DNA of 40,188 bases from a virus (Duplodnaviria; Heunggongvirae; Uroviricota; Caudoviricetes): IMG/VR virus record IMGVR_UViG_2534681762_000013; one strand, 5' to 3'. Below the pieces are notes generated by a model, which was not told the origin of the DNA, did not search any database, and saw nothing but the letters and a program-made list of their open reading frames with translations. Numbering within the stretch: the stretch's first letter is position 1; each line of letters begins with the position of its first letter. Of this stretch, positions 698-38,720 are shown piece by piece. The position numbers were made by a program, and so were the translations under genes.

Positions 698-1060
698 GGG
701 GCTGATTCTGGATTCGACGGGATTTGCGAAACCCAAGGTGCATGCCGAGGGGCGGTTGGCCTCGTAAAAAGCCGCAAAAAATAGTCGCAAACGACGAAAA
801 CTACGCTTTAGCAGCTTAATAACCTGCTTAGAGCCCTCTCTCCCTAGCCTCCGCTCTTAGGACGGGGATCAAGAGAGGTCAAACCCAAAAGAGATCGCGT
901 GGAAGCCCTGCCTGGGGTTGAAGCGTTAAAACTTAATCAGGCTAGTTTGTTAGTGGCGTGTCCGTCCGCAGCTGGCAAGCGAATGTAAAGACTGACTAAG
1001 CATGTAGTACCGAGGATGTAGGAATTTCGGACGCGGGTTCAACTCCCGCCAGCTCCACCA
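698..1060 (+). ncRNA. ssrA: tmRNA (transfer-messenger RNA)
   Basis: Starts GGGGCTGATTCTGGATTCGACGGG, contains the tag reading frame GCAAACGACGAAAACTACGCTTTAGCAGCTTAA (ANDENYALAA), and ends with the tRNA-like GGTTCAACTCCCGCCAGCTCCACCA; 363 nt. Confidence 0.95.
1016..1053. repeat. attL core: 38-bp direct repeat formed by the 3' end of ssrA
   Basis: ATGTAGGAATTTCGGACGCGGGTTCAACTCCCGCCAGC is repeated identically at 34447..34484; the two copies bracket the prophage. Confidence 0.75.
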
Positions 1061-1070
1061 AATAAAACAA

Positions 1071-1103
1071 GGGGTTACGTGAAAACGTAGCCCCTTTTTC
1101 TTT
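1071..1103 (+). terminator. ssrA intrinsic terminator-like hairpin
   Basis: GGGGTTACG / CGTAGCCCC stem followed by a T-run, immediately after the CCA end of tmRNA. Confidence 0.5.
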
Positions 1104-1177
1104 GGTAGTGGCGGCAAAATGGCGACAGAGTGTCGGACTGGCGGCAACAAAAAACCCGCCTTTAAAGCGGGTTCTGT

Positions 1178-1396
1178 TCAGAAACTCATGTGGCCTTGAC
1201 CACCTTTTCCAGGATGTGGCGGCGCAGAAGAAATTAGATTCGGTTTTATAATGTGCCGTACAAACGTTTCATGAGTAACGAACGTACAGCCACAATTTAT
1301 ATTTTGGCACTGGTTGTAACGTTCTTTTGTCGTAGCTGATACCTGAAAACTGCTTCTGGTATGTGCTGCATGACCGCACTCTGGACAGTTCATCAT
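1178..1396 (-). CDS. ogr: Ogr/B-type zinc-finger late transcription activator
   Basis: 72 aa from the internal Met (MMNCPECGHAAH...TTKERYNQCQNINCGCTF...), a C4 zinc-finger pattern like P2 Ogr; RBS before this Met; the ORF-track 88-aa version likely over-extends the N-terminus. Confidence 0.8.
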   Translation of the reverse strand: MMNCPECGHAAHTRSSFQVSATTKERYNQCQNINCGCTFVTHETFVRHIIKPNLISSAPPHPGKGGQGHMSF

Positions 1397-1464
1397 CGCT
1401 GTTATCCCACCACTCTTGCCGTAGTCGCAATAATGATACATCATTATTCAGTATTGAGAACCGA

Positions 1465-2565
1465 TTATTCAATTTCAAGATCACCAATCTTTACTTCAAG
1501 CTCCATGCTGGTCGTAAATCCATTATCCGGGCTGACAGAATGCGTCAGGGTGGTAATGGTCCACTCTGCATCATCGATCGGCTGCTTGAACCCTGTAACC
1601 TTCACCGGCATTTCCGTATAGAGATCAGCCCGCCCCTCAGCGAGCTGCAGGGAAAATGTAGCAACCCCACGCTGCAGACGTTCCCACTGCATTTTTGCTG
1701 CGCGCTCAGCATTGTTCCGGTTGGCGTAGGTACGATTAAGAACTAGCACGTTTTCATCCGTTCCCACCAGATAATCGCCCTGTTTTGCTTCCGGCTCTTT
1801 GGGTGTGGTGGTTTTCTTTCGACGACGCTTAACACTGGTTGTCTCTTTTTTCCTGGGTTCACGCGTATGCAACCAGCTGGCAATAACACCGGTATAGGCA
1901 CCACGATCAGCAAGGGTGAACCGATGACCGTCACCGGCTTTGCGAGTGATGGTGATAACCGGCAGCGGCTTGCCGCTCGCCGTTCTTCCCTGTCCCTGCC
2001 GGATAAACAGCAGATTCCCGTCCTTAACGGAAGCAATCGCCCCATACTGTCTCGCCAGTTTCATCAGAAAACTTGCATCGCTTTCATTGGTCTGGTCCAG
2101 ATGATCCAGCGCCTTATCCGTCAGGTCTTTACCCAGCGCCATTTTGAGGTTATGCCGGGCGGCTATTTCCTTTACCACCTCCCCCACCGTTGTCTGATGC
2201 CATGATTTTTCGCGCCGTGTATTGAGGGTTTCACGGAAATCTGCGCTACGCGCCCGGATGGTCAGCCGGTCAGGGGCACCGCTGTGTTCAATTTCATCCA
2301 CAGTAAAAGCCCCTTTAGGGAAAAGCGGCTGGCCTTTCCAGCCCAGCGCCAGCTGAATCACTGCCCCACGTCGCGGCAGGGCGATCAGCCCGTCGGCGTC
2401 GTCCAGCTCCAGATCAAGCTGGTCCGCTTCAAAGCCCCGGTTATCCGTCAGCGTCAGACTCATCAGGCGGGTATCCAGCACGGTCGTCACGTCCTTACCT
2501 TCAATGACGATACTGAAAGCCGGGCTTTTGCTGTTCAGATTCAGAAGATCAGAATTAACGTTCAC
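1465..2565 (-). CDS. D: P2 gpD-like tail protein (late gene D)
   Basis: 366-aa ORF placed between ogr and U as in P2; GTG start; overlaps the U stop. Confidence 0.8.
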   Translation of the reverse strand: MNVNSDLLNLNSKSPAFSIVIEGKDVTTVLDTRLMSLTLTDNRGFEADQLDLELDDADGLIALPRRGAVIQLALGWKGQPLFPKGAFTVDEIEHSGAPDRLTIRARSADFRETLNTRREKSWHQTTVGEVVKEIAARHNLKMALGKDLTDKALDHLDQTNESDASFLMKLARQYGAIASVKDGNLLFIRQGQGRTASGKPLPVITITRKAGDGHRFTLADRGAYTGVIASWLHTREPRKKETTSVKRRRKKTTTPKEPEAKQGDYLVGTDENVLVLNRTYANRNNAERAAKMQWERLQRGVATFSLQLAEGRADLYTEMPVKVTGFKQPIDDAEWTITTLTHSVSPDNGFTTSMELEVKIGDLEIE

Positions 2566-3047
2566 TGCAGCAATCCTCCTACCGTGTTCTTAATCCCCCC
2601 AATCGCAGAGGCAGCAGAGTCCTGCAGGTTGCTGAGCTGGTCACTCAGGCTCCCGAACATGTCAGACAGTGATTCATCAACCCGTTTGAGGGTGATCGTA
2701 AACTCAATGCGCCTGGGCATACCGCTGGCAAAAAACTCCGTCTTTGTCTGGCTCAGACTTTCAATAACAAACATGCCGTAAATGGTTCCGCTGCCTTCAA
2801 TCAAAGGCCAGGCTTTGCCCTGCTCTGCCATCAACTCCAGCGCCAGCAATGACAACCTGCCTCCGGTCACTTCCGGCAGCAGAACCCCGGACAGTGTCAG
2901 TGAATCATTATCCGGGCCAAGAAACTGCGTTGACGGGCGGCGATTCACCCGGCTGTTGGCGGCATGTCGCCAGCTGCGCTGATACTGCAGCTCCTGATAA
3001 GGGACAGTGCGCAGCATAAATACATATAAACCCAGCACCATCATCAT
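2562..3047 (-). CDS. U: P2 gpU-like tail protein
   Basis: 161-aa ORF starting MMMVLGLYVFMLRTVPYQELQYQRSW, matching remembered P2 gpU; start overlaps the T stop (ATGA). Confidence 0.85.
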   Translation of the reverse strand: MMMVLGLYVFMLRTVPYQELQYQRSWRHAANSRVNRRPSTQFLGPDNDSLTLSGVLLPEVTGGRLSLLALELMAEQGKAWPLIEGSGTIYGMFVIESLSQTKTEFFASGMPRRIEFTITLKRVDESLSDMFGSLSDQLSNLQDSAASAIGGIKNTVGGLLQ

Positions 3048-6000
3048 GATTCATACCCCCCCTGATCGCTGAAATTGCTGCGCGCTTTTGCCCTGGCCCT
3101 GCGTTCCCGCTCGTCAAGCTGACGTGCCACTTCACGGGCAATATCCTGCGCACTCTGTCCCGGCTGCGCGACGATATGAATGGGCGCATTTATCTCATAA
3201 CGAATAACTGACGGCGGGCTGTCAGCCTTCACTGGCTGCGTCTGGTATGCACTCGCAGGCAGACTGAACGGATGAAGCGGAACCGCTTCTGCAGGTGTCG
3301 CAGCAACCCCCATAACGCCTGCAACGACAGAGGCAAGCGCAGCAGTACGCCGCCTGCTGGTGACATTTGCCGGTCCGTTCACAATTTCAGGGCCATTTTC
3401 TCCAACAATGCCAAACTGCCCGCGTGGAATGATCCCGCCCGTGTCGTACATCCCTGCGTAAGCCGGGAACCCGCCTGGCGGCAGCACCACTTTGCCGTCA
3501 CTGTTCACCGTGGCGGATTGCTGTTGCGTGACCTGTGCAGGCAGTTTCGCCTTTGCCGCCTCCTTACTGACAATACCGAGCTTTTCCAGTAGCCATGACA
3601 CACCGGATTTAAGAGACTCCAGCGGGTGCATCACCATAGTCAGACCTTCCGCCAGCGCCTCACCAAACCGGCGCCCCATTGCAGCTGCGCTGTTCAGTTC
3701 TTCGGAAGTGGATTTAACCGGCGAAAGTAAATCGCTGAACCAGCCCCACAAGGCCTGCACCCTGTCACCAATCCACTGGAACATGGGCCTGAGCGGCTCA
3801 AAGGCGGCGCTGATTGGCGCTGCAGCGGCTTTGAACCCTTCCACCACGCCCCCCAGAAATGCACTGATGGGCTGCCAGTATTTCCACACAACCAGCGCCA
3901 CACCAGCCAGCGCAGCCACAACCAGCCCTATCGGACTGAGCAGCGCACCCAGCAGGCCGGAAATACCAAACAGCGCGCCGCGAAGTAATGCCAGCGGACC
4001 AGAAACAAGAAAACGCAATACGCCACCGGCAGCTGTCAGCCCACCACGCAACGCCGCCAGCGGGTTCATCACCATACCGATAACATTACGGATGCCTGAC
4101 ATACCGACACGGAACACGGCAAGCGGAGCACCTGCCACCGTTTTCAGTGCATTACCCGCTATTCCGGCTGAGCGACGCAGGGAATTAAGCGGGGCACTCA
4201 GTAACCCTACACTGCCACCGGATGACGCCATACCCCGACGCAACAGGGAAAGTGGCGCACCTGCCAGCCATGACAGGGCACCGCCAGTACGTGTTACCGC
4301 TGCAGCAACGGAAGGTAATGTTTTTACACCCAGCACAGACAGGCCAAACCGAATCACCGCAATCGGCCCCAGCACAGCAGCCACTGCCACGGCAAGTGTA
4401 CCCAGCCCGACAGTGACAGCCGCCGTAGCCGCCGCCACTTTCATCAGCGTGCCAGCCAGCACGGGATTCTGCTCCACCCAGCGACGCAGCGCCCCGGTCA
4501 CGCCCTTAACCATGCCCATAATATCCATCAGCGGCTGGCGCAACGTTTCCCCCAGACTGCTGAAAGCGTTCTGCGCGCCAGTCTTAACCAGCAACCACTG
4601 CGCAGACAATGAATCCTTGTTAATGTCGGATTCTTTCTGCATCGAGCCATTCGCACCACTGCCTGATGTGAGTTTCAGCTGACGCTGCAGCTCCGGCAGG
4701 TTGTTAGCCAGCTTTGCCGCATCATCGCCAAACTCTTTACCAAAAATCATTGTCATGGCTGACAGGCGTTTATCCTGCGGCAGATTGTTGACCTTCTCCA
4801 GAACCCGCTGAATGGTGCCCATGGCATCGGTGGTCATCTGCTTTTCAATCTCCGCAGGATTGAGTTTCAGCAGATTCATACCTTCAAAGAAGCGCTTACT
4901 TTGCATGGTGGCAATGGACAGTTCACGCACCATGGCATTAGAGGCGCTGGAGGCAATTTCCGGGGCAGCCCCAAGAGAAAGGAATGTTGAACCCAGCGCA
5001 GCAGCTTTTCGGAAGTCAAGGCGGTCAGCCACGCCCCCCATACGCTGCAGGACGTTGATAATGTCCCCGCCCTTTGACATGGCGTTATCGTCCAGGTAGT
5101 TCAGCGCATCGCCCAGTTGTTCAATATTGCGCGTCGGCACTTTATAGAGCTGCGCGATTTTCCCCAATCCTTCCGCCAGCTCATCGGCGGGCAGCTCAAA
5201 GGCCGTTGCAGCTTTTGCCGCCGTGGATGCAAAGGCCAGCAGGTCACGTTTCTGGTCCTCAAAGAGATCGTCCTGGCTGGTCACGCCCATACGCGCGCCC
5301 CCTTCAACCAGCGCGGCATAATCTATAGCGCCATTCTCCATCGGCAGCTGCTCACTGGCAGCCTTAATGGCATCCTGCATGTCATAAAACTGTTTTGTAC
5401 GGTTGCCGTTATCGTCCCGCAACCCGTTTACCTGCTTTGCCACGCCTTTCATGGCATCTTCCATGCTGGCGTAGCTTTTCACTGCAGCCAAAACCGGCGC
5501 ACCCATTGCCAGCCCGGCAGCTGTAGTGGTGGCTCCGGCTCCGGCTATGCGATCCCGAACCTCAAGACGGCGCGAATACTGATCACGAACCGCATTCATT
5601 CTCGCCTGCTGTTCACCCAGGTGTTTCAGAGATTTTTGCTGTCGCTCCAGTGCCAGTCGGGTTTCATCGGCGTTCTGCCGTAGCTCACGCTGTGCGCTGC
5701 TCAGTTTCTTTGTATCAAGCCCTGCCTCATTCAGCGCAAGGCGCTGACGCTGCACTGACTGACGCAGCCCGTTATATTTTCCCTGTAAATCGGTGACGCG
5801 ATTTTTAGCCTGCTCAAGCAGCCTGGCCTGAGCTGCCGTCGGGCGGTTGGTCGCAGTAAACTGCGTGGCGAGTTTTGCCGCTTCTTCGCGGGCGGCTTTA
5901 AGGCTGTTACCTGTGACTGCTAGCTGCGCGCTGGCCTTACGGAAGCCATCAATTCTGCCCGCCTGAGAATCTAACTCTTTCAGCCGGGCGCGGCTTTGCT

Positions 6001-6109
6001 GAATGGCGGCAGCCAGCTCTTTTGAGCTGGTCTGCGCGGATCGAAATGGGCGGGTGAGCTTGTCAACCGCATTCAGAATCACCTGCAGACGCAGGTTATT
6101 GTCACTCAT
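3044..6109 (-). CDS. T: tail tape measure protein (gpT-like)
   Basis: 1021-aa ORF with a coiled-coil N-terminal half and Gly/Ala-rich hydrophobic middle, positioned between E/E' and U. Confidence 0.85.
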   Translation of the reverse strand: MSDNNLRLQVILNAVDKLTRPFRSAQTSSKELAAAIQQSRARLKELDSQAGRIDGFRKASAQLAVTGNSLKAAREEAAKLATQFTATNRPTAAQARLLEQAKNRVTDLQGKYNGLRQSVQRQRLALNEAGLDTKKLSSAQRELRQNADETRLALERQQKSLKHLGEQQARMNAVRDQYSRRLEVRDRIAGAGATTTAAGLAMGAPVLAAVKSYASMEDAMKGVAKQVNGLRDDNGNRTKQFYDMQDAIKAASEQLPMENGAIDYAALVEGGARMGVTSQDDLFEDQKRDLLAFASTAAKAATAFELPADELAEGLGKIAQLYKVPTRNIEQLGDALNYLDDNAMSKGGDIINVLQRMGGVADRLDFRKAAALGSTFLSLGAAPEIASSASNAMVRELSIATMQSKRFFEGMNLLKLNPAEIEKQMTTDAMGTIQRVLEKVNNLPQDKRLSAMTMIFGKEFGDDAAKLANNLPELQRQLKLTSGSGANGSMQKESDINKDSLSAQWLLVKTGAQNAFSSLGETLRQPLMDIMGMVKGVTGALRRWVEQNPVLAGTLMKVAAATAAVTVGLGTLAVAVAAVLGPIAVIRFGLSVLGVKTLPSVAAAVTRTGGALSWLAGAPLSLLRRGMASSGGSVGLLSAPLNSLRRSAGIAGNALKTVAGAPLAVFRVGMSGIRNVIGMVMNPLAALRGGLTAAGGVLRFLVSGPLALLRGALFGISGLLGALLSPIGLVVAALAGVALVVWKYWQPISAFLGGVVEGFKAAAAPISAAFEPLRPMFQWIGDRVQALWGWFSDLLSPVKSTSEELNSAAAMGRRFGEALAEGLTMVMHPLESLKSGVSWLLEKLGIVSKEAAKAKLPAQVTQQQSATVNSDGKVVLPPGGFPAYAGMYDTGGIIPRGQFGIVGENGPEIVNGPANVTSRRRTAALASVVAGVMGVAATPAEAVPLHPFSLPASAYQTQPVKADSPPSVIRYEINAPIHIVAQPGQSAQDIAREVARQLDERERRARAKARSNFSDQGGYES

Positions 6110-6538
6110 CGCTGGCCCCGCTTCTCTGAATCGCTTTATGCCGCCACTCCAGCACCTCTGTCAGCGGCATAACGTCAGTGATGGACGGCGACCAGTGAAA
6201 GATGGTGGCGATATCCGCCACCAGGTCATCAATCGTCAGGCTGTCGGTAAACCGGCAAGCACCGACTTCTTCAACAAAAAAGTCACCACCTCGACCGACA
6301 GCGCGGTGAGATCGGCGGGGTCCAGTTCAGCCATTTCCTGTGCGGTCAGCGTTGGGGTGGAAATACGCGGGATCACTGTCATCATGGCCCCCACGTCCAT
6401 ATCCATAATGGCCTGCAGGCGGGTGCCGCGCAGCGCACCGGACTGCGGCTTACGCAGCACAATTTCGGTGATTTGGGTTTTACCGCGCATGATGGGCGTA
6501 TCCAGTTGTACGGTTTTTTCAGTCAGCTTGTCGCTCAT
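6102..6538 (-). CDS. E+E' extended tail chaperone made by programmed -1 frameshift
   Basis: Slippery T-TTT-TTG on the minus strand (plus 6275..6281); the -1 frame stays open to a stop at 6102..6104 that overlaps the T start codon, the same geometry as P2 E/E'. Confidence 0.55.
6236..6538 (-). CDS. E: tail assembly chaperone gpE-like
   Basis: 100-aa ORF directly upstream of T; contains a TTTTTTG slippery heptamer near its 3' end. Confidence 0.8.
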   Translation of the reverse strand: MSDKLTEKTVQLDTPIMRGKTQITEIVLRKPQSGALRGTRLQAIMDMDVGAMMTVIPRISTPTLTAQEMAELDPADLTALSVEVVTFLLKKSVLAGLPTA

Positions 6539-6592
6539 GTTCGTTTCCTGTTAATCAGATACTGGCGCGGATCACCGCGCCGTTAAGTTAAA

Positions 6593-7108
6593 TCAGAGGC
6601 CAAGGGCGTTACGGTGTGCTTCCATCAGGTCCGCGCCGTCAACGATTTCAATCATGTTGACCAGATCAACCTCATAGAGCACTTCGCCGTTAATGGTCAG
6701 CTTCGCGTAGCTGTTGGTGCTGCTGACTTTGGTGGTGCTGCTCTCGCCGGTTTTCCACTCGCCGGAATCCACTTCTTTATGACGCCCCCGCACAACCAGC
6801 TCAATGGCCTGAACTTCGCCGGTATCGTCACGCTGAATAGAGCCGGTGAAACGCAGCTGGATGCCATCAACGGTTGCCTTGCCCATCTGCTTGAATAACA
6901 ACAGTTCGGTGCCGCCGATTGAAAATTCCGTGTCGAGTGCGCCGTCATCCAGCCCCATATCCACATCTACCGCGCCCGGCATACCGCCGCCGCGATACTT
7001 CTCAAACTTGCGGGTGAATTTCGGCAGAGTCAGGGACTCAACGATCCCCTGCCAGTTGTTCCCGTCGTTGAACAGATTCAGGTGTTTTAACTTGCGTGGT
7101 AATGCCAT
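6593..7108 (-). CDS. FII: tail tube protein (gpFII-like)
   Basis: 171 aa from the internal Met (MALPRKLKHLNLFNDGNNWQG...), preceded by a G-rich RBS; the ORF-track start at 7141 would overlap FI. Confidence 0.85.
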   Translation of the reverse strand: MALPRKLKHLNLFNDGNNWQGIVESLTLPKFTRKFEKYRGGGMPGAVDVDMGLDDGALDTEFSIGGTELLLFKQMGKATVDGIQLRFTGSIQRDDTGEVQAIELVVRGRHKEVDSGEWKTGESSTTKVSSTNSYAKLTINGEVLYEVDLVNMIEIVDGADLMEAHRNALGL

Positions 7109-7118
7109 GTATCCCCCC

Positions 7119-8291
7119 TTATGCACTGACACGGCTGGCAAAATCGACCAGGTAGCGATCGGTGATGCGCTGGCGCAGCATCAGATTTTCAAGCGGCAGC
7201 ACAGGCGTGTAGTCGTAGTCGATGGTGAGCTTCCCGGCTTTCAGAGAGTCTTTATCGTTCACTGACTCATCCAGCCAGCAGTCCGCCCCGATGAGGTATC
7301 CCTGATTTACCAGGCTGCGTAATTTGGCGCGAATACCTTCGATAATGTCGCGGGCCAGTGACGGATTCAGTGGCTTATCCACCGCCCACATATGCCCCTC
7401 TGCAATTGTGTCAGCCAGCACCTGCGCCGTACGGGTGTAGTTCTCAAACGCAAACAATGGATCGTCACTGAGGCAGCGGGAACCCCAGAAGCGGAAGCCG
7501 TCTTTGCAGATCAGCGTGGTGACGTCATTCTGGTTCAGCAGTCCCGCGTCTGTTGCCGGGTCCTGCAGATCCCAGAACACATCAGCGGAAAGACCGGTGA
7601 CGCCATTCACACCCACGTTGGACAGGGTTTTGTGCCATCCGGTCTGTTCGTCGATTTTGGCGCGCAGACCGAGCGCACGTGCGGAGGCGTAAGCCGTCGC
7701 ATCGGCTTTAAGAACGGTGTCAAAGTTGATGAAATCAGGCCAGATCAGCATCCCTTCTCGCTGGCTGAAATTGTCCCGGTAAGCAATGGCTTCCTCCACC
7801 GTCTTGCAGCCATAGGCAGACAGGTAGGCAAACCCGCGCAGGCTCTGCGCAATACTCATCAGCTCAGTGGCTACCGCCTGCGTGTCATGCCCCGGCACAC
7901 CGAGAATGCGCGGCTTAACTTTCAGCTGCGACTGCGCAGAAAGCAGCGCTTTCATCCCCGTTTTTTTACCGTCGGACGTGACGCCACCGATAATATTGGA
8001 GGTGGTTTCCGCTTCGGTTTCGCCCTGCGCCACGCGCACAACAACCGTCACGGGTTTTGATTGGTCGGCAATCGCATCAAGCGAACGGGCCAGCGTGCCG
8101 GACTCGCCTGCTTTACCGCTGGCCTCCAGCACATCCGTCAGCAGAACCGGCTTATTGAGAGGAAACACGGACGCATCAGCATCATCGCCGGTGCAGACCA
8201 TGCCCACAATAGCGGTGCTCACCGTGGTGATAGATCGGGTGCCCTCGTTGACTTCAACAACGCGCACCCCGTGGTGGTAATCCTGAGCCAT
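7119..8291 (-). CDS. FI: contractile tail sheath protein (gpFI-like)
   Basis: 390 aa ([35 protein letters not shown]...), closely matching remembered P2 FI along its length. Confidence 0.9.
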
Positions 8292-8374
8292 AGCGGCGAA
8301 CCTCCTGATTGGAATAGGCTTCGCCCTATGTTGTATTGATTACGTCACGCAGACAGCTGCGCGGCGTTGTCCTG

Positions 8375-8932
8375 TTAATCACACAATGTCGCAGGATATT
8401 TGCGGTATAACGTCGAGATCCCCACATCAAACATTAAAGCAACCCGCTGCCGTGTTTCACCTGCAGCAAGTAACCTGCCAGCCTGTGCCCATTGCTCTGG
8501 CGTCAGTTTTGGTCTTCGCCCTCCAATCCTGCCTTTAGCTCTTGCGGCTTCCAGTCCCGCACGGGTTCGTTCCACTATCAACTCGCGTTCCATCTCCGCC
8601 AGTGCCCCCATAACGTGAAAGAAAAACCGCCCCATTGGTGTACTGGTGTCTATGCTGTCAGTCAGACTACGGAAATTAACTCCGCGCTGCCGGAGTTCTT
8701 CTATCAGGGTAACAAGGTGTCGCATGCTTCTTCCCAGCCTGTCGAGCTTCCATACAACCAGCGTGTCTCCCTCTGATAACGTCCTGAGCAACCTTTTTAG
8801 CCCTGGTCTGTCTGCTGTTTTTCCGCTCATTTTGTCTTCAAAAATTAGCTCACATCCTGAGCGTTCCAGTGCATCACGTTGCAAAGCAGTGTTCTGGTCA
8901 TTTGTTGACACCCTCACATAGCCTATTTGCAT
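8375..8932 (-). CDS. serine DNA invertase (Gin/Hin/Cin/Pin family)
   Basis: 185 aa from MQIGYVRVSTNDQ (catalytic Ser motif) with C-terminal HTH; adjacent to a segment flanked by hix/gix-like inverted sites. Confidence 0.88.
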   Translation of the reverse strand: MQIGYVRVSTNDQNTALQRDALERSGCELIFEDKMSGKTADRPGLKRLLRTLSEGDTLVVWKLDRLGRSMRHLVTLIEELRQRGVNFRSLTDSIDTSTPMGRFFFHVMGALAEMERELIVERTRAGLEAARAKGRIGGRRPKLTPEQWAQAGRLLAAGETRQRVALMFDVGISTLYRKYPATLCD

Positions 8933-9017
8933 GAAAAATAACCTCTTAAAAGATAAACAGCATGCCATGATTTTCAGATGCTGGAATCATTTGCTACGTA
9001 ACTGATTCAATACTGGC

Positions 9018-9043
9018 TTTGGCTAAATGTTGGTTTGGGAGAA
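9018..9043. other. invertase crossover site A (hix/gix-like 26-bp site)
   Basis: Its reverse complement TTCTCCCAAACCAACATTTAGCCAAA shares the 14-bp half-site TTCTCCCAAACCAA with site B at 11512..11537 in inverted orientation; resembles hixL (TTCTTGAAAACCAAGGTTTTTGATAA). Confidence 0.55.
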
Positions 9044-9403
9044 GCGGCAAAACGAAATGTGGGAACAGGGGAAAATCAGATACCGGACATGGCTTCATTT
9101 AGTGGGGTGAGGGATTATTACGGAAAACAACTTTTGCCAGGAGGGTTGATACTTCAGTGGCTGACGATTCCATCAAGTGCAGCAGCCAAAGCTGTAACAC
9201 TGAATAATGGTAATTATCAGCTGTCAGGCTATAAATGGCCCCAGTCATTTGGTGTCCTGTTTGCTGTGTTTGCTACAAAAGTTTCTGGCTCGACTAACGA
9301 AGCATATGCAATCTCAGTTAATCGTCACTCTACCGATGTAATTGTCATCTGGAATGCCCGTAAGGCTGATGATGTCCACATTTTAGGAATTGGGGAATTA
9401 TGA
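9035..9403 (+). CDS. alternative tail-fibre C-terminal (variable) segment, currently in the silent orientation
   Basis: The open frame begins inside crossover site A with no independent start context; it would fuse in frame to the constant part of H after inversion, as in Mu G / P1 C segments. Confidence 0.55.
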
Positions 9404-27302: not shown

Positions 27303-27351
27303 TTTCCCTCCTATCACCACCTCGGATACACAACAACTGTATATATATCCA

Positions 27352-29871: not shown

Positions 29872-30722
29872 GCCCGCACCTCAGTTTCCACCGAGATATC
29901 TGGACCGGACGCCAAATCGACACCAAACCAGCCAGCTGATTTTGTGGCGATGATTTCTGCTGCAGATTTACTCTCGCCGGCAGCCACACCCATGCTGCGC
30001 TTTGCGGTGATGCGATGGCGGGTAAAATTACGATAAAGCGAACGGGTCAGGGACGTGTCGCTGTTGGACACGATAACCGGATGACCTTCTGATGACCGGC
30101 GCTCAAGAATAGACGCCAGATGATACTGATCGTCTTCTGTAAAACCGGCAGTGTGATAACCGCTAAATGTGCCATCGTATGGCGGATCACAATAAACAAC
30201 ATCACCAGCCTGCAGCAGCGCCAGTGTTTCGTCATAGCTGGCACAGATAAACGTTGCGCGTTGAGCCTTTTCTGCAAAAGCGCGTATTTCACTTTCAGGA
30301 AAATACGGATTTTTATAATTACCGTAAGGGACATTAAAATGACCGCTCAAATTATAGCGGCACAACCCACGATAACCATGGCGATTAAGATAAAGGAAAA
30401 ATACAGCTTTCCAGAAATCGGTGGTTTCAGCCGAATGATTAAAATCCTGACGGATGTTGTAATAAGACTCAGCGCTATTTGTGCCTGAAAAGAATCCTTT
30501 TGAATTTGAAATAAATTTCTCGCAGTCAAATGCAATATGCTTAAAAAGATTTATCAGGTCTGGGTTAATATCCGCGACAAGATAATGAGGATAGTCTGTC
30601 GCCATCATTACAGCGCATGAACCCGCGAAAGGTTCAACCAGTCGCGTGCCAGCAGGAAGATGCTTAATCAGTTCCGGCATGATGGAGGTTTTATTTCCCG
30701 CCCATTTCAGAATAGTGCTCAT
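29862..30722 (-). CDS. Dam-like DNA N6-adenine methyltransferase
   Basis: 286 aa from [11 protein letters not shown]; motif I region [11 protein letters not shown] and motif IV DPPY ([11 protein letters not shown]); start overlaps the upstream stop (ATGA). Confidence 0.85.
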
Positions 30723-30946
30723 ACAGCACCCCCGTTGTAGTGTTTGCCTTTCAGCTCTGCGATTTCCTGACAAGTGACGCAGCACTGCACGCCCGGAATG
30801 GCGCGGCGGCGAGCTGGCGGGATCGGCGCATCGCAATCAATGCAGAGAACACGGGAAACGCCCGGCGTTTTATTGCGGGCGGTGTGGATATGGCGCGGGC
30901 GTTCTTCTTCAACGCGCTGCTGTACAAGGTCCATTGAATCAGCCAT
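30719..30946 (-). CDS. TraR/DksA-family C4 zinc-finger protein
   Basis: 75 aa with CIDCDAPIPPARRRAIPGVQCCVTCQ. Confidence 0.65.
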   Translation of the reverse strand: MADSMDLVQQRVEEERPRHIHTARNKTPGVSRVLCIDCDAPIPPARRRAIPGVQCCVTCQEIAELKGKHYNGGAV

Positions 30947-31179
30947 CAGTGGATCTCCTGCGCTTCGTTCTGAATCTTCACAGCTTCCTGACGCAGCAGC
31001 TCAGCCGCTTCCGTGTGGTTAAGCTGACGTGACACGATACGAGCAGCTAAAGAATCCAGACGCGCAGCCATCACATCTGCGCGTCCCCGGCGTTCTTCTT
31101 TGCGTGCCTCAGTCAGCAACAGGTTGAGACCAGCATCATCTGGTCCGGTTTTAGTGGTACGGGTTTCAATATTTCGCAT
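30946..31179 (-). CDS. hypothetical early-region protein
   Basis: 77-aa ORF tightly packed within the early operon. Confidence 0.45.
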   Translation of the reverse strand: MRNIETRTTKTGPDDAGLNLLLTEARKEERRGRADVMAARLDSLAARIVSRQLNHTEAAELLRQEAVKIQNEAQEIH

Positions 31180-31246
31180 AGTTGTTTCTCCTGAATTTGG
31201 GCAATAAGAAGCCCGGCGGGTTTACGCCATTAATTTCTGTTGTGGA

Positions 31247-31588
31247 TTAATTCGGCATGGTTAGCCGTTTGGGAAATAAGCTCACCACTGCACGAAAATG
31301 ATTCATTGCTTTCACCAGTTCCCGCTTTTCGTCAGTAGTCAGATCACTAATATTGACGCCGTGACGTTCTGCCGGAATTTTTGCCATATAAAAAATGGCT
31401 GCCAGTGCCCGCTCATTCTGTTTATTATTTACGTCGCGTGGATCGCGCATATCTTTAATAAACCTTTCAAGCTCCGGCTCAATATTCAGGCCAAACACTT
31501 TAGCTCTCAATTCCGCAATATGATTCAATGCGTCCAGCCTTTTACCGGGGCTTAATGGAACAGTCGCTGCAGCGCCTTCAATAGCCAT
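31247..31588 (-). CDS. hypothetical early-region protein
   Basis: 113-aa ORF in the early operon; no motif recognised. Confidence 0.45.
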   Translation of the reverse strand: MAIEGAAATVPLSPGKRLDALNHIAELRAKVFGLNIEPELERFIKDMRDPRDVNNKQNERALAAIFYMAKIPAERHGVNISDLTTDEKRELVKAMNHFRAVVSLFPKRLTMPN

Positions 31589-31758
31589 GATTTCCCCTGT
31601 TTGGTTGTGGACAGGTCAGCCAGCAGTTCATCCTGAGAGCGGCACGGGTGCCAGCGTTTGCCATCCTTCCCCATGATCCAGCCGTGACCGTAGTGCATTG
31701 CCGGGCTTTGCTTTATGAGAAGTGACGCAAAAGAGGGTTCTTTAGTCAGCATAACCAC
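31552..31758 (-). CDS. hypothetical early-region protein
   Basis: 68-aa ORF immediately downstream of the CII-like gene. Confidence 0.4.
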   Translation of the reverse strand: MVMLTKEPSFASLLIKQSPAMHYGHGWIMGKDGKRWHPCRSQDELLADLSTTKQGKSWLLKALQRLFH

Positions 31759-31759
31759 C

Positions 31760-32269
31760 TCAGATCAGACCAAACGAAGCGCCGAGGCCCGTCACGGTAT
31801 CCACCGCGCTTGCCATCGCCGGGTTAGCCTGTAAACGCGCCTGCATCGAAACGGCAGCCAGTGCCATCAGACGAGTAACAGAGTTAATGCTGCTGATAAC
31901 ATCGCGGCGGCCTGCGGTGGTTTTCACATCACCCGATACGGCACCGGCAGCAACACGTCCGATTTCAGCAGTAGCGCTCATGACGTAATGCGGCAGCTTC
32001 TCTTTTGCCACTTCATTCAATGGCACGCACGGCAGGCAATGGATTTGAGCCAGAAAACCGTCAACCAGCGTTGAGTCTTCTGTGATATCAGTCAGCAGCC
32101 AGATCTCCGGCGGGGTAAGTTGATGCGGTTGCTCCGGGTTCAGCTTGTTGCGCAGCGTCTGGACATTCATTCCTGCGCGTTCTGCCAGCTTCGCCATGTT
32201 GTGACGCAGCGAGAAAGCCCGGCAGGCTTCATCAAAATGCGGATGTTTGGAAATCTTATAATCAAACAT
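31760..32269 (-). CDS. cII: 186 CII-like transcriptional activator
   Basis: 169 aa MFDYKISKHPHFDEACRAFSLRHNMAKLAERAGMNVQTLRNKLNPEQPHQLTPPEIWLLTD..., closely matching remembered 186 CII in sequence and length. Confidence 0.75.
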   Translation of the reverse strand: MFDYKISKHPHFDEACRAFSLRHNMAKLAERAGMNVQTLRNKLNPEQPHQLTPPEIWLLTDITEDSTLVDGFLAQIHCLPCVPLNEVAKEKLPHYVMSATAEIGRVAAGAVSGDVKTTAGRRDVISSINSVTRLMALAAVSMQARLQANPAMASAVDTVTGLGASFGLI

Positions 32270-32301
32270 GTTTCATACCTCAAAAGTTCACATAATTGAA
32301 C

Positions 32302-32550
32302 TTAACAACCAACTACAACGTTGTAATTGAATGCAGACTTGTCCATGTTTTTGCTTGCTTGGTCTTTTTTGTACTTGAGGTAAAGGATGAATACGCGGCC
32401 TTTGTTTTTTTCTTTCTTTTCAATGTAGTTAGCCAATTTACCGTTATGAATCATCTGATAAACAGAACCACGGGAATACCCTTCCCACTTAGCAAACTCG
32501 GCTGGCGTCGCTATCACTTTTGGTACACGAATTGAAATATCAGTGCTCAT
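32302..32550 (-). CDS. apl: Apl/Cox-type excisionase and lytic-promoter regulator
   Basis: 82-aa HTH-like ORF, first gene of the lytic operon, divergent from cI as in 186. Confidence 0.6.
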   Translation of the reverse strand: MSTDISIRVPKVIATPAEFAKWEGYSRGSVYQMIHNGKLANYIEKKEKNKGRVFILYLKYKKDQASKNMDKSAFNYNVVVGC

Positions 32551-32595
32551 AGTGCAGTATCTCTCGGTTAAGGTTTGGTTTACGTCGTTTTATCT

Positions 32596-32676
32596 TGTTT
32601 TATACGATTCAAGAGTTGATACGAAAAGATACTACGATCCAATATTTGATACGTCAATAGGATTAAAAAATGATAC
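32596..32676. promoter_or_regulatory. lysis-lysogeny switch region with repeated GATAC-containing operator-like motifs
   Basis: TTGATACG at 32616..32623 and 32646..32653 (30 bp apart), plus GATAC variants at 32628 and 32672, in the 119-bp interval between divergent apl and cI. Confidence 0.35.
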
Positions 32677-33302
32677 AGGTAAAGACAGGCGAGAACACCG
32701 GGGGTAGAGAGGCCATCCATAGGCTAATGGCAGCCTACGATTTCAAATCAAGACAGCAATTGTGCGACCATCTTGGCGCATCTAAAAGCACCATGGCAAA
32801 CAGATACTTAAGAGATAGTTTCCCTGCAGAATGGGTAATTCAGTGCGCTCTTGAGACAGGCGTTTCTTTACTCTGGCTTACCACAGGGCAAGGCGAGCCG
32901 GGTTCAAATATTGACATGCAAAAAGATATCAATTTCGTGAACTCCGGCAAAGTTAAACACCTTTCTGACCTTGTTTCTCCCGAAATTGACAAAGTGACAC
33001 TTTCTAGCGGCTCTTTGGTGGATACAGGTAAAGCAATCATTGACAGCAGCTTGCTTCCTTCCAATTCCAGTAACTTACTCTTAGTAAATACCGGTGGTGA
33101 TTCATACCTAGTGGATCGCAGCCAAACACCACCAGTAAATGGGGTGTGGTTGGTCGATATTGATGGAATAAAAAGTATTGTGAAGTTAACCCGTATCCCC
33201 GGAAACAGATTGGTAGTTCATCAAGATGAATCATCTTTTGAGTGCAGCCTGGATGATATCGAGGTTGTAGGCCACGTCTTAAAAGTTATTAAGAGCCTTT
33301 GA
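32670..33302 (+). CDS. cI: 186 CI-like immunity repressor
   Basis: 210 aa; N-terminal HTH region ...MANRYLRDSFPAEWVIQCALETGVSLLWLTTGQG resembles 186 CI; immediately upstream of int. Confidence 0.78.
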   Translation: MIQVKTGENTGGREAIHRLMAAYDFKSRQQLCDHLGASKSTMANRYLRDSFPAEWVIQCALETGVSLLWLTTGQGEPGSNIDMQKDINFVNSGKVKHLSDLVSPEIDKVTLSSGSLVDTGKAIIDSSLLPSNSSNLLLVNTGGDSYLVDRSQTPPVNGVWLVDIDGIKSIVKLTRIPGNRLVVHQDESSFECSLDDIEVVGHVLKVIKSL

Positions 33303-33303
33303 T

Positions 33304-34329
33304 ATGACCATCAGAAAACAGCCAAACGGGAAATGGTTGTGTGAGTGCTACCCTAGCGGGCGCGATGGCAAGCGCGTGCGCAAGCAATTTGCGACGAAAG
33401 GCGAGGCCATAGCATTCGAAAACTTCACAATGGATGAAGTGAACAAAAAGCCATGGCTAGGCGAAAAGGATGATCGGCGCCAATTGTCAGAAGTAATTAA
33501 GCAGTGGCATTCACTTTACGGACAGACTCTTGCTGACCCCAAGCGCCTGATGGCAAAACTTAACATTATTTGTAATGGCCTGGGTGATCCCATTGCCTCG
33601 GAGCTGACTGCCGGTGACTTTACAAAATACCGTGAAGCACGCCTAAAAGGTGAAGTCAAAAATGAAGATGGCTTGCCTATGTCGCCAGTTAAGCCCCGCA
33701 CGGTAAACCTTGAACAACGCAACCTATCATCAGTTTTTGGCACGCTGAAAAAGCTGGGCCACTGGTCAGCCCCCAACCCACTCGCCGGGCTTCCAACATT
33801 TAAAATCGCAGAGGGGGAGCTGGCGTTCCTGGCGCCGGAAGAAATTAAACGCCTGCTGGATGCCTGCGCTGATTCAGAAAACCCCAGCCTGCTCATGATT
33901 GCAAAAATCTGCTTAGCTACCGGCGCCCGCTGGAGTGAAGCCGAAAACCTGCAGGGCCATCAGTTATCTAAATACCGAATCACCTACACCAAAACAAAGG
34001 GCAAGAAAAACCGAACGGTTCCTATATCTCAGGCGCTGTATGACGAGTTACCAAAGAACCGAGGGAAGTTATTCACGCCATGCAGAAAAGCCTTTGAGCG
34101 TGCAGTCAAGCGGGCAAGCATTGACTTGCCAGAGGGCCAATGCACCCACGTTCTGCGCCATACTTTCGCCAGTCATTTTATGATGAACGGCGGAAATATA
34201 CTGGTACTGCGCGATATTCTGGGCCACGCCGATATTAAAATGACAATGATTTACGCCCACTTCGCACCCGACCACCTGGAAGATGCAGTGACAAAAAACC
34301 CGCTTCACAATCTCAACTGGAACCGTTAA
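33304..34329 (+). CDS. int: tyrosine integrase (P2/186 Int family)
   Basis: 341 aa with the C-terminal catalytic region HVLRHTFASHFMMNGGNILVLRDILGHADIKMTMIYAHF (R...HxxR...Y); adjacent to attR. Confidence 0.9.
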   Translation: MTIRKQPNGKWLCECYPSGRDGKRVRKQFATKGEAIAFENFTMDEVNKKPWLGEKDDRRQLSEVIKQWHSLYGQTLADPKRLMAKLNIICNGLGDPIASELTAGDFTKYREARLKGEVKNEDGLPMSPVKPRTVNLEQRNLSSVFGTLKKLGHWSAPNPLAGLPTFKIAEGELAFLAPEEIKRLLDACADSENPSLLMIAKICLATGARWSEAENLQGHQLSKYRITYTKTKGKKNRTVPISQALYDELPKNRGKLFTPCRKAFERAVKRASIDLPEGQCTHVLRHTFASHFMMNGGNILVLRDILGHADIKMTMIYAHFAPDHLEDAVTKNPLHNLNWNR

Positions 34330-34446
34330 TTTATGGCGGCACTTTGGCGGCACAGACTTAAAATCACATAAAACCCGACAAATACAAAAAACAATAACGT
34401 GATGATTTTAAAAGTAAATGTATGTTTTTATTAGGCTAACAATGGT

Positions 34447-34484
34447 ATGTAGGAATTTCGGACGCGGGTTCAACTCCCGCCAGC
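34447..34484. repeat. attR core: second copy of the 38-bp ssrA 3'-end repeat
   Basis: Identical to 1016..1053. Confidence 0.75.
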
Positions 34485-34613
34485 CAATCATGATTGGACG
34501 GTATAAGGACAACACCAATAAAAACAGGAAGTTAGCAGTCTCAGCAGGACACCGACCAGACGGTGAAGAGACATAAAAGGATACGCAAAGGAGCCGCGGC
34601 TCCTGGTGACATG

Positions 34614-34638
34614 AAAGCCCACAGATGTGGGCTTTTTC
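34614..34638 (+). terminator. intrinsic terminator-like hairpin
   Basis: AAGCCCA-CAGATG-TGGGCTT followed by TTTT. Confidence 0.4.
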
Positions 34639-34646
34639 GTTGATGG

Positions 34647-37600
34647 TCAGAACGACCAGTTCACACCAGCTACCCCGTTCCACGGGGATTCCACACCGGC
34701 ACCATGGCTATACCCCACCCCAAGATGCCCGCTTAACGTACTGCTGAATGAGGCTTTAATACCTGCCTGGTATATTCCACGTCTGCCCGACAAATCATTG
34801 ACGAAATTACCGTCACTATTCACTTTCACCCGGTTATCATCGACAAATTCTTTGCGCACAGCCGCCTTCAGCCACGGCTCAACTTCCATACCGTTCCCCA
34901 GACGCATGTTGTAACTCAGCGTTGCACCCAGTTCACGATATAAACTGCGGGTATCGACTGATTTCGATTCCATGCCATTGGATAAATGATATTCAGGGTT
35001 ATCAGCGGTGAACCCCCGTTAACGATGCATACGGCGTCAGGTTCCAGTTACCATCGGTAAATCGCATCCCGGTTTCAATGTGACCGCCCAGCCCGTTGCT
35101 GCGATAACTGCCGTTGGCGGCTCCACCGCTGCCAACCGTGGAGTCGCGAGCTTCGGTACCTGCTAATACCAATAAATTACCGCCATTTTCCAGCAACATA
35201 TTGGTCGCTAAATTGCCGGAAATGGAAAAAGTGCCGTACTGGTGAGTACCGCTGATTTCAATACCGTTAGCCGTGCTCGTCTGGAGAGCGGCACCGCTGT
35301 TCTGGACGATATCTGTCGCTTTGCCATTATCGTTAACTGTCAGCGTACCGCCTTCATTGATCTTTGTTTTTATTGCCTCTCCGTTAGCTGAAACTGTTTG
35401 TATTCCGCCGTCGTTAATCGTTGTCTCATTCGCCACCCCCTCGACGATTTGTTCGCCGCCGGTGAGCGTCGTGCCTGTCGCAGTGGCTTTTGTTTTGACG
35501 ATCTCCCGTCCGCCCGTATTGACCTGTGTTTTGTCAGAAGAGGTGTCTGACTCCACGGTTAACACGCCGCCATTTGCCAGCAGGATATTGTTCGCCGCAC
35601 CCTGCTCGATGCTGAACGCGACGCCATCCGCGCGTGTTCCTGTGACCCGCGTCGCCCTGGTGGTTGCAACCAAAGCGCCCTGGCTACTCTGCTGTATCCC
35701 CGTTGCGCTGCCTTTCTCCCGCACATCGAGTGTGCCGCCGTCATTAAGCACCGAGTTTTCAGCCAGACCGCCCTCATTAACTACCTGTGAACACCCATTA
35801 ATAATGGAACCTTCCGCTATCCCGTTTGCCATAATTTGTTGTAGGCCAGAGACGATATCGGTATTGATCGCCTTACCATAATTCTGAACAGTTTGTGTGC
35901 CGCCATTGATGTGCGTTTTGTCAGTTGACCCACCATCAACAATTTGTTCACCACTTTCAATATTTGCCTCAGTGGCTAAACCATATACCGTTTGCTTGCC
36001 ACCTTTGATATTTGCTTTATCAGAAGTGGCACTGGCATATATTGTTTGGGTGCCAGCACTATTAAGTACAGTGCCAACATCTTTTCCATAAACATCCATT
36101 TTGCCGTTGGCATTAATAATCGTATCAACTGCCCGGGAACCAGTGACGACTGTTAATGAGCCAGCGTTTTCCAGCACTACATTTTTAGCTTCTGAATTCC
36201 TGATGTAGAAAGCATCACCATAACTGTTGGTTCCTTCGATAAGGGTTCCGGAAGTTGTGGAAGCAATTAATGCGCCGCCGGATTGTTGCTCAACATGCTT
36301 AGCCTCACCACCGTCCTGAACCTCCAGAACGCCACCATTATTAAGTCTGGTGGTATCTGTTTTAGCCTCCTTCTGGACAATCAGCTTACCGCCAGCATCA
36401 ACGGTAGTATTTTTCGCCGAGGTTTTAGCCACTACCGTCAGTTCGCCGGTATTTTCCAGCACAACATAATTAGCCTCCCCTCCGGTAATAGTGAAGTGAG
36501 AGAGCTTGTTGTATCCTTCAATATCAGTCCCTGCGCCCGTGTTGGCAACTAAAGCACTGCCCGTCTCCTGGTTAACCCCATGTGCAATACCGCCGGTATA
36601 GACAATCAGCGAGCCTCCGGCGCTAATATTGCTGCCAATTGCCGTACCATCTTTCTCAACAACTTGCTGGCTCCCGGAGGATATAATTGTTGTGTCAGCT
36701 TTCCCACCGCTTTTGATATTTTGCGTTCCGCTGTTGATATTGGTGCCTGTGGCTATGCCATAATTATTAAGATTCTGTGTGCCACCATTAATTATGGTAT
36801 TTGTCGCGTTTCCTGCAACATCCATAACCCCGCCATTATCTATTCGGGTCGCATCAGCTTTAGCATTCGTTAAAACTGACATTGTTCCTTTATCTTTAAT
36901 AATCGTCTTGTTTGCGGAATGAGATACTTCTAAATGGCCTCCATTTTCCAGCAACACATTGTCTTCCACTTTATTGTGGATGGAGAATGCACCTTCACTA
37001 TTCGTACCGCTCACCGTCGTACCGTTAGTGTTTGTTTTTAAAATTGCACCATCGTGCTGGGTAACATTTGTTGCCGTACCACCACTAACATCAAGCACGC
37101 CACCGGAATAAACTTCAATAACATCCGAGGTGCTGGTGTTATCAACAATTTGCGTGCCACCAGAATAGATCTGCGTAATTTTTGCCGTTGACTTACTATT
37201 CAGAGACTGAGTTCCGCCTTCAATCGTCGTGTCCAGCGCACGGCTCTCATATACTCTTTGCTCACCGCCATTTTTAATGGTTGTTGTTTCTACTGTGCTC
37301 TGTTCAACATACTGTCGACCACCATTTATGGTTGTGTTCGTTGCCAGACTTCCTTGTACTACGTCCTGAGAGCCAGACTTATTTATCGTTGTACCATCAG
37401 CATGCCCTTGAACTTTTACTATCTGGCTACCACCATCAATGAGTATTCCATTCGCACTCCCTCCCTCTACGCGTGAAGCACCGCCCTTAATTGTCGTTCC
37501 ATTGCTGATACCCCCTTTATAAACGTCCTGATTGCCACTCTCGATTGTCGTACCTGTGGAAATACCCCCGTCATGAATTGACTGTCTGCCACCGTTAATG

Positions 37601-37911
37601 GTTGTATTATTAGCCTGCCCCACAAAATTGTTATGACTTCCTATATCTTGATATCCACCAGATTCAATAAGACTTCCATTAGATACCCCGCCATGAACAT
37701 TCTGCTGGCCATGGTTGATAATATGAGTGTTATTTGTTGTACCTCGTTCATCCACTTTTTGGTTGCCATCTACAGTCTCATCGTTTACCACACCAATAAC
37801 ATCAGGAGTGAAGGCCGCCATACCGGGCGGGGCATATATCAAGGCAGATATCAATAAGGAAAGTACTGAGCGGCGACAATAATGGGGACTGGTCCTGTTC
37901 ATAAATTTCAT
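34647..37911 (-). pseudogene. autotransporter adhesin-like gene, disrupted
   Basis: Signal peptide (MKFMNRTSPHYCRRSVLSLLISALIYA) and a roughly 970-aa passenger of degenerate Gly/Thr/Asn-rich repeats in one frame (to 35002); the last ~108 aa of a beta-barrel ending ...GVNWSF lie in another frame (34647..34973); total barrel region too short for a complete translocator. Confidence 0.65.
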
Positions 37912-38240
37912 CCTCTGAAAAGTGAATACTGAGTAGCGTTTAAGCGACCTTAGCTCTGCTGCAACATCAGCCCACAGGCACCAGACCAGGGGATTCATCC
38001 TGAAGAGACAGCGCAAGTGTATTGTGTTCACCGCTCATCAAAGACATCATGATGAAATGATGATATTCCACATAAGAAAGAAGCATTTTTTAAACGCAGT
38101 GCGCTGAAGTATGGTTGGATAAAAAAGTCAATCTATTCAGGGAATACGGGGGTATTCTTTTCTTTCGACAATCAGGTCGTCGGCAAAATAAAATGATTTA
38201 CATAATCGTTTCTGATGAATATCTTCTGCTCACATAAAAA

Positions 38241-38476
38241 TCACACAATAACTTTGAGATCGCAGATTCTTTTACTTTTACAGCATTCGTCCCCCCATTG
38301 TTGGGCAAATATAGATTGGGCCAGAGCACGAAAGTTAATACCACGTTTGCACAGCTCCTCCAACAGCACGACAAGATGCCACATACTGCGCCCCAGTCGG
38401 TTCGGTTTACAGACTACCCGTGCGTCCACCGCCGATAATGTCCTGAGCAGTTTTTTCAGTCCGGACCTCCTGCCAC
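38241..38476 (-). pseudogene. serine invertase (Pin-like) gene fragment
   Basis: Translation ...GLKKLLRTLSAVDARVVCKPNRLGRSMWHLVVLLEELCKRGINFRALAQSI aligns to the central part of the intact invertase at 8375..8932; lacks the N-terminal catalytic serine and C-terminal HTH. Confidence 0.6.
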
Positions 38477-38644
38477 GGTTTTACGTTGAAGAGGTAACCC
38501 TGAGCACGCAGTTCATCAGTCAGGCGTGGTGTACCGTAACCCTATTATTGATGGGTAAGATCAAAAAAACTTTCAGGCAGCTAAGGAAAGTTGAACCAGA
38601 CATTAGAATAAATATTTCAACCAATTACAGCACCAATTCAGACA

Positions 38645-38720
38645 CCGCCAGCTCAACAAATAAATCAAGGGGTTACGTGAAAGCGTAGCCCCTTTTTCTT
38701 TGGTAGTGGCAGCAAAATGG
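38645..38720. repeat. third, degenerate copy of the ssrA 3' end and terminator flank
   Basis: CCGCCAGCTCAACAAATAAATCAAGGGGTTACGTGAAAGCGTAGCCCCTTTTTCTTTGGTAGTGGCAGCAAAATGG is a near copy of 1046..1124. Confidence 0.6.

Follow-up and report, generated by a model that had tools for sequence, protein, structure and literature searches.

How many mobile elements have entered the 3' end of the transfer-messenger RNA (tmRNA) gene ssrA, and where does the bacterial chromosome begin again behind them? In the present study, this question was raised by the IMG/VR virus record IMGVR_UViG_2534681762_000013, and the whole stretch of 40,188 nucleotides (nt) is hereafter termed the window. Over positions 1..1060, the window shows 100% identity to numerous Escherichia coli chromosomes, identifying the host as E. 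coli; ssrA lies here on the plus strand at 698..1060, encoding the tag ANDENYALAA (ARAGORN; Rfam RF00023, 295.8 bits). The gene is intact, directly oriented fragments of the ssrA 3' end lie at 1016, 34447 and 38645, and the element-specific arms abutting these fragments were assigned to the P2, LLS-like and CP4-57-like families. On the basis of sequence comparison, we consider it likely that the window represents the E. coli smpB-ssrA integration hotspot, in which a complete Fels-2/186-like prophage lies upstream of stacked older attachment (att) scars. The decayed scars beyond the prophage would stem from three or more earlier mobile elements inserted at this ssrA site; we infer their order and number.

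First, the boundaries of the resident prophage could be placed exactly. The 38-mer ATGTAGGAATTTCGGACGCGGGTTCAACTCCCGCCAGC occurs exactly twice in the window, at 1016..1053 and 34447..34484, and no chance match would be expected for a sequence of this length even with three mismatches allowed; the final 45 nt of ssrA (1016..1060) fall within the phage att identity block. The DNA enclosed by the repeats is approximately 91% identical to Fels-2, SopEPhi and Yersinia phage vB_YpM_MLG42 over 74-91% of its length (megablast), and E. coli XH992 carries a 99.9%-identical prophage, likewise at ssrA. The free phage MLG42 shows one unbroken series: the integrase gene, a P arm bearing two TGGCGGCA motifs, a 45-nt stretch that is identical to the 3' end of ssrA, a hairpin terminator, and a P' arm in which two more TGGCGGCA motifs lie. 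The attP rebuilt from the window (34201..34484 joined to 1054..1300) gives a gap-free alignment of 359 nt with MLG42, which makes the att boundaries exact and usable as such in annotation. These results support the reading that a P2/186-like prophage occupies ssrA and that the 38-bp repeats are its attL and attR; both the exact repeat and the 33.4-kb P2/186-like prophage between its copies, as given in a preliminary description of this DNA, hold. To judge from the same alignment, the ssrA 3' end and terminator in current use (1054 onward; predicted fold of the hairpin, -20.1 kcal/mol) are phage DNA. The tyrosine integrase (33304..34329) recombined the phage attP with the ssrA 3' end, and attP brought the final 45 nt of ssrA together with the phage terminator and arm sites, thereby rebuilding an intact tmRNA gene at attL and shifting the old ssrA 3' end to attR.

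Second, the attR of this prophage is damaged, a defect that the preliminary description had overlooked. The natural att repeat is 46 bp, as seen in XH992 with the same phage, where attR reads ...CCAGCTCCACCA followed by ATCATG; in the window, attR reads ...CCAGC followed by CAATCATG, and the repeat is 38 rather than 46 bp because the five nucleotides TCCAC are lacking. Since TCCAC is lost at attR, precise excision would deprive ssrA of its acceptor 3' strand and of the CCA: the gene would end in ...CCAGCCAATCATG, and the predicted attB of the cured chromosome would read ...CCCGCCAGCCAATCATG. Upon excision in silico, ARAGORN no longer called the canonical 698..1060 tmRNA. It is predicted that curing the phage would probably inactivate tmRNA, and the lesion would make curing costly or excision impossible by analogy with the island CP4-57, in which a 1-nt attR defect has been shown experimentally to abolish trans-translation upon excision (PMC10107115).

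The 5-nt-deleted allele is not restricted to this prophage. It was also found beside four other, different occupants, namely a P2-like phage (locus L001), an element with an LLS-like integrase in HN68 (85% identical, at the same attR), a P4-like element in 14EC029 and the O157 island, the last with a different flank allele. An 80-nt query for the deleted attR matched 740 genomes, a figure that is no clean count owing to megablast seeding, with the allele on several backgrounds, and the allele CGCCAGC-----CA has been tabulated for RS218 and EDL933 (PMC10107115, Table 1). Five different occupants stand next to this allele, two or more flank backgrounds carry it, and it is also reported for Salmonella LT2; this distribution might suggest that the gap was inherited from an older att variant ending in CCAGC, such that the ssrA gene was already defective before integration and was rescued by the phage. 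This explanation is unlikely, as empty-site strains with a 99.8%-identical flank carry an intact TCCACCA and XH992 carries the same prophage with an intact attR; a loss at attR itself is the reading preferred herein.

Third, the sequence adjoining the prophage is the one that usually flanks ssrA in E. coli. In strain 2014C-3061, an intact ssrA (...CCAGCTCCACCA) is directly joined to ATCATGATTGG... / ATCATGATTGGACGG..., corresponding to the window from 34487 onward with 99.8% identity, and attB was thereby located. A 130-nt query for this empty junction was covered to at least 80% in 2650 of the 5426 complete E. coli genomes, and the same ssrA-flank junction was observed in E. albertii, indicating that the DNA from 34485 onward is the normal ssrA flank of E. 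coli and the attB context of the phage. The third copy is retained in genomes with an unoccupied ssrA (L083), among them 2014C-3061. Absence of this repeat from the empty site would, according to the preliminary description, have refuted its reading, and such an absence was not observed. The preliminary description had proposed that an older ssrA-targeted island was displaced distally by the phage. Traces of earlier integrations into ssrA do exist, but they do not belong to one element, since the left end is LLS-like and the right end is CP4-57-like, and a stretch that is the species-typical flank of an intact ssrA in nearly half of the genomes has been displaced only in a trivial sense.

The left end of this flank resembles a lambdoid phage. 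The sequence at 34485..34650, which directly follows ssrA in unoccupied E. coli, is part of a match between window positions 34453..34637 and the attP P' arm of phage LLS (85% identity over approximately 190 nt, E = 4e-54), and the att site of LLS is annotated as a tmRNA pseudogene. An alignment of this arm family showed conserved blocks across seven genera; the arm follows ssrA in Xenorhabdus, Proteus, Providencia, Arsenophonus, Yersinia and Enterobacter, and, of the six loci whose downstream sequence exceeds 4 kb, three (Providencia, Xenorhabdus and Yersinia) have lambdoid tail genes behind it. In the window, tblastn with gpJ, tail fibre, gpI and the LLS integrase revealed no lambdoid gene, and the arm alone (approximately 165 bp) survives; LLS and its relatives (Ayreon and phiNP), by comparison, are lambdoid phages with an attP annotated as a tmRNA pseudogene. 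Most simply, 34485..~34650 would be the relic attL arm of a lambdoid prophage. The opposite possibility, a capture of E. coli DNA by phage LLS, was judged unlikely, as other genera have lambdoid tail genes behind this arm. E. coli O157:H7 was considered as a strain with the full lambdoid occupant and rejected; its occupant is a non-lambdoid island and gave no lambdoid right end.

The right end tells a different story. The third copy (38645..38720) had been described as a degenerate ssrA end with its terminator, and it does align with 1046..1122 at 72 of 77 positions (93.5%), with a hairpin of -19.8 kcal/mol compared with -20.1 kcal/mol for that at attL. However, only its first approximately 14 nt (CCGCCAGCTCAACA, for which K-12 has CTGCCAGCCCACCA) are derived from ssrA; the other approximately 62 nt match the phage DNA located 3' of ssrA at attL. 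A longer degenerate copy of ssrA was rejected, as nothing ssrA-like was found upstream of CCGCCAGC. The 110 nt to the left of CCGCCAGC showed no similarity to ssrA or to the P2, LLS or other arms, and resembled only the right end of CP4-57, with a Smith-Waterman score of 47 against 16.6 +/- 2.6 for shuffled sequences (reached by 0/300) and a blastn identity of 76.6% over 77 nt. The right side matches the P2-type P' arm through the terminator into GGTAGTGGCAGCAAAATGG, a region of att-flanking TGGCGGCA motifs, and its TGGCGGCA-like motif, a putative integrase arm site, is conserved in the arms of MLG42, Raoultella and Sodalis. The third copy thus looks like a junction of a CP4-57-like P arm, an ssrA end and a P2-type P' arm, the layout expected if a P4-type island had entered an ssrA gene that already held a P2-type prophage. 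In the genomes with a near-identical flank, the annotation between attR and ypjCB lists no IntA homologue, and the two ypjA open reading frames (ORFs) gave only AIDA and autotransporter domains (Pfam); therefore, the CP4-57-type source of the left side is a relic at best and not an island. In K-12, this scar lies between pinH and ypjB and is unannotated.

Does the original chromosome resume at the third copy, as the preliminary description had held? In that case, the third copy would be the ancestral chromosomal ssrA 3' end with a native AATAAATCAAGGGGTTACG terminator, a single older island would account for ypjA and pinH, and the P2-type attP would mimic the native flank. The third copy does hold an ssrA-terminal fragment and a strong terminator, it persists in empty-site genomes, and, in Xenorhabdus indica and Sodalis, ssrA is followed by a terminator of the same type, away from any phage genes. 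Several results argue against this explanation, which we regard as improbable. The similarity to the phage arm runs approximately 25 nt beyond the terminator into the GGTAGTGGC(A/G)GCAAAATGG arm-site region, which is conserved in MLG42, Raoultella and Sodalis, and the interval resembles one element family at its left end and another at its right end. The DNA just beyond the third copy (ypjCB) has a GC content of 33%. The region is present in about 3000-3100 of the 5426 genomes, so that about 43% of E. coli lack the third copy, and in APEC O1 (L090 3000..3704) an LLS-like arm with an LLS-type terminator reaches the region upstream of glaH within approximately 330 bp, with the ypjA-pinH-copy3-ypjCB-ileY-ygaQ block wholly absent. 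Alternatively, a resident P2-type attL might have given rise to the third copy through ectopic duplication or gene conversion, or the similarity might be due to chance; the P2-type prophages found at ssrA in E. coli are frequent enough to have been donors. This is far less plausible still: the identity at 72 of 77 positions rules out chance, the copy is found in about 3000 genomes including K-12, whose ssrA occupant is CP4-57 and not a P2-type phage, and it is directly oriented and borders precisely on an ssrA-terminal fragment and a CP4-57-like arm, which is what a recombination junction would look like. The comparisons thus favor a third copy that is probably another relic layer, with the original chromosome not resuming there, and the DNA adjoining the phage is, with high probability, a stack of older scars and not native chromosome.

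Herein, we propose that this stack was built by successive integrations into a regenerated ssrA end, each of which would have shifted the earlier attL arm distally. Read outward from ssrA, the order would be the LLS-like attL arm (34485..~34650), the ypjA and pinH debris, a CP4-57-like attR arm with 14 nt of ssrA (38583..38658), and a P2-type attL arm with its terminator (38659..38720). Internal deletions would later have stripped the integrases and most of the cargo from the older elements. At least four integrations would be required, from distal to proximal by a P2-type, a CP4-57-type and an LLS-type element and finally by the present phage. Three points weigh against this proposal. The direction of transfer from phage to chromosome is deduced for the relic arms from their association with phage genes across genera; the left arm of the third copy resembles CP4-57 significantly but only modestly (~70-77%), and CP4-57 is the one comparator available for it; and no integrase is left in 34485..38720 by which each scar could be assigned to a family.

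Similar arrangements were observed in other genera. In Xenorhabdus indica (L024) and a Sodalis sp. (L047), P2/HP1-type attL arms with terminators follow ssrA and are succeeded by metabolic or polyketide synthase genes; in both, the ssrA terminator in use is apparently provided by a relic phage arm. In Salmonella houtenae, a P4-type arm without an integrase follows ssrA. In Cedecea colo (L057 10925..14080), a 3.1-kb mini-island with two P4-type arms and a perfect CCGCCAGCTCCACCA repeat before the second arm was found after ssrA, and this segment may be a small tandem or relic array analogous to that of E. coli.

More tentatively, and with less than even confidence, we hypothesize that a native 3' flank of ssrA does not exist in E. 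coli: the flank and terminator would be a domesticated LLS-like attL arm in unoccupied strains as well, the region from ssrA to glaH would preserve, layer upon layer, the traces of four or more integrase families, and attR lesions (1 nt and 5 nt) would recur and persist because the loss of the occupant costs the cell its tmRNA. If this is true, recurrent attR lesions would represent a passive addiction mechanism favoring the element that integrated last. The apparently chromosomal ssrA flank of E. coli, itself built of phage and island arms, also calls for caution in the automated calling of island boundaries by repeated tRNA or tmRNA fragments.

To date, the tmRNA gene has reportedly been known as an integration hotspot since the work of Williams in 2003; Pelludat is said to have placed SopEPhi and Fels-2 at ssrA in the same year, and CP4-57 at ssrA and its excision switch of tmRNA are reportedly due to Kirby in 1994 and Wang in 2009. 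The enterobacterial ssrA hotspot is characterized by several integrase families, occupants differing by strain and leftover ssrA fragments, and the window is alike in kind; the K-12 annotation already contains a displaced ssrA fragment, psaA, at the attR of CP4-57. Serial integration at ssrA is therefore supported but already documented, and the finding is correct in outline and ordinary. The resident prophage is alike to Fels-2 and SopEPhi of Salmonella and to MLG42 in gene order, integrase, ssrA site and an attP carrying the ssrA 3' end and terminator, and differs from them in its E. coli host and in its PARIS (AriA/AriB) cargo. Its attR is damaged, unlike the case of Fels-2 or SopEPhi, whose excision has been listed as leaving ssrA intact (PMC10107115). 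As in CP4-57 of K-12, whose prophage-excision switch of tmRNA (CP4-57/CP4So type) has been described (Onodera 2022, PMC10107115), an element at the ssrA 3' end supplies the functional gene end, and the attR lesion lies in the acceptor/CCA region, leading to a defective tmRNA upon excision (predicted for the window and experimental for CP4-57). The two elements also share the downstream ypjA-pinH-copy3 flank. However, CP4-57 is a cryptic island of the P4-integrase type with a repeat of approximately 14 nt and a 1-nt attR defect, whereas the element in the window is a complete phage of the P2 family, in which the repeat measures 38 bp (46 bp in its native form) and the defect 5 nt.

Table 1. Features of the window, in order of position, with the basis of each assignment.
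Feature	Position	Strand	Basis
smpB, SsrA-binding protein gene	1..483	+	100% identity to E. coli smpB; so annotated in matching genomes
ssrA (tmRNA), intact	698..1060	+	ARAGORN; Rfam RF00023
attL copy of the 38-bp exact repeat	1016..1053	+	Exact repeat search
Fels-2/SopEPhi-like P2-family prophage, 33,393 bp	1054..34446	.	BLAST; XH992 annotation; Pfam
Phage P' arm: ssrA terminator hairpin ~1069..1096, TGGCGGCA motifs at 1109 and 1139	1061..1150	+	MLG42 contiguity; fold; motif scan
ogr	1178..1444	-	Pfam Ogr_Delta
gpA replication gene	27697..29871	-	Pfam Phage_GPA
186-type cI	32670..33302	+	Pfam Phage_CI_repr and Phage_CI_C
Tyrosine integrase, 341 aa	33304..34329	+	Pfam Int_N and Phage_integrase; annotated integrase in XH992 and MLG42
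Phage P arm, two TGGCGGCA motifs at 34334 and 34345	34330..34446	+	MLG42 comparison; motif scan
attR copy of the 38-bp repeat, TCCAC missing directly after 34484 (CGCCAGC-----CA allele)	34447..34484	+	Comparison with XH992 and 2014C-3061
Probable relic attL (P') arm of an LLS-like lambdoid ssrA phage; two hairpins and terminator ~34589..34637	34485..34650	+	BLAST; family alignment; fold
Degraded ypjA/ehaD AIDA-type autotransporter, two ORF pieces	34647..38031	-	Pfam AIDA and Autotransporter; PGAP pseudogene in near-identical genomes
ypjA beta-domain tail, 108 aa	34647..34973	-	Pfam
ypjA AIDA-repeat ORF, 1009 aa	35002..38031	-	Pfam
pinH, Hin/Pin-type serine invertase fragment, residues ~54-106 only	38311..38469	-	tblastn; annotated partial recombinase / pinH pseudogene
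Putative relic P arm like the right end of CP4-57-type (P4-integrase) ssrA islands	38583..38644	+	Smith-Waterman; blastn
Degenerate final 14 nt of ssrA, CCGCCAGCTCAACA vs CCGCCAGCTCCACCA	38645..38658	+	Alignment
Probable relic P2-type P' arm: terminator hairpin ~38667..38694 and GGTAGTGGCAGCAAAATGG	38659..38720	+	93.5% identity to 1046..1122
ypjCB (DUF5507 and DUF5508), 33% GC, distal to all scars	38815..40188	-	Pfam; GC; annotation

The preliminary description placed a degraded autotransporter and an invertase fragment between the second and third copies, and this interval does contain a broken ypjA autotransporter and a 53-codon invertase fragment (Table 1). The ypjA of the window lacks approximately 1.3 kb held by K-12 and XH992 between the AIDA repeats (BLAST; window 35120..35132 against L002 25631..26939), and this loss is additional to the break that isolates the beta-domain tail; in XH992, which carries the same prophage, ypjA is intact at 4.6 kb. 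The pinH fragment is 66% identical to the invertase of the prophage (tblastn), but its assignment to the present prophage was rejected, as it lies outside the att sites. Beyond all scars, ypjCB forms a single intact ORF of 457 aa in the window; it is split into ypjB and ypjC in K-12 and is a pseudogene in XH992 and O157.

The prophage itself is, by its gene content, a plain and complete member of a known genus-level group of temperate P2-family phages (Peduoviridae; Felsduovirus, Fels-2/SopEPhi-like). A late gene set of the P2 type was present, comprising D, tail sheath and tube, tape measure, baseplate, capsid, portal, terminase, lysis and ogr genes, and the 186-type cI / apl-cII switch, gpA and the tyrosine integrase beside attP were all found by Pfam and annotation. 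In XH992, the prophage is annotated by PGAP with a full P2-family set and a 186-type cI/cII/Fil region, gpA, Dam and integrase, and no disrupted genes are noted. The prophage is uncommon, as at least 80% of it was found in only 15 of the 5426 complete genomes. Two PARIS-type genes lie at 15103..17206 (+), on the opposite strand within the late operon between baseplate V and a virion-morphogenesis gene, in what is presumably the known P2 cargo hotspot. PADLOC identified this anti-phage cargo as AriA (2e-36) and AriB (9e-23), which PGAP names an AAA ATPase and a DUF4435 protein. A Hin/Pin-type invertase gene (8375..8968, -) adjoins oppositely oriented tail-fibre-assembly genes (region 8375..10700), and a 15-nt inverted repeat at 8967..8981 and 10158..10172 surrounds 1176 nt; the segment between these repeats is probably an invertible host-range segment. 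In the related P2-like prophage at ssrA of E. coli CV839-06 (L001), a gene annotated as 'anti-phage dCTP deaminase' lies at 4078..5811 between int and attR, a cargo position that is empty in the window.

The adjacency of smpB and ssrA is not universal. A genome scan anchored on SmpB revealed several Enterobacteriaceae without ssrA within 10 kb of smpB (L007-L010, L012, L016, L035, L039, L045 and L048), and these many loci left fewer close outgroups for comparison. In Salmonella houtenae (L091), an HlyD-family type I secretion gene, a homologue of STM2692, was observed directly upstream of ssrA, and we take the Salmonella type I secretion genes at this position to be the bapABCD cluster.

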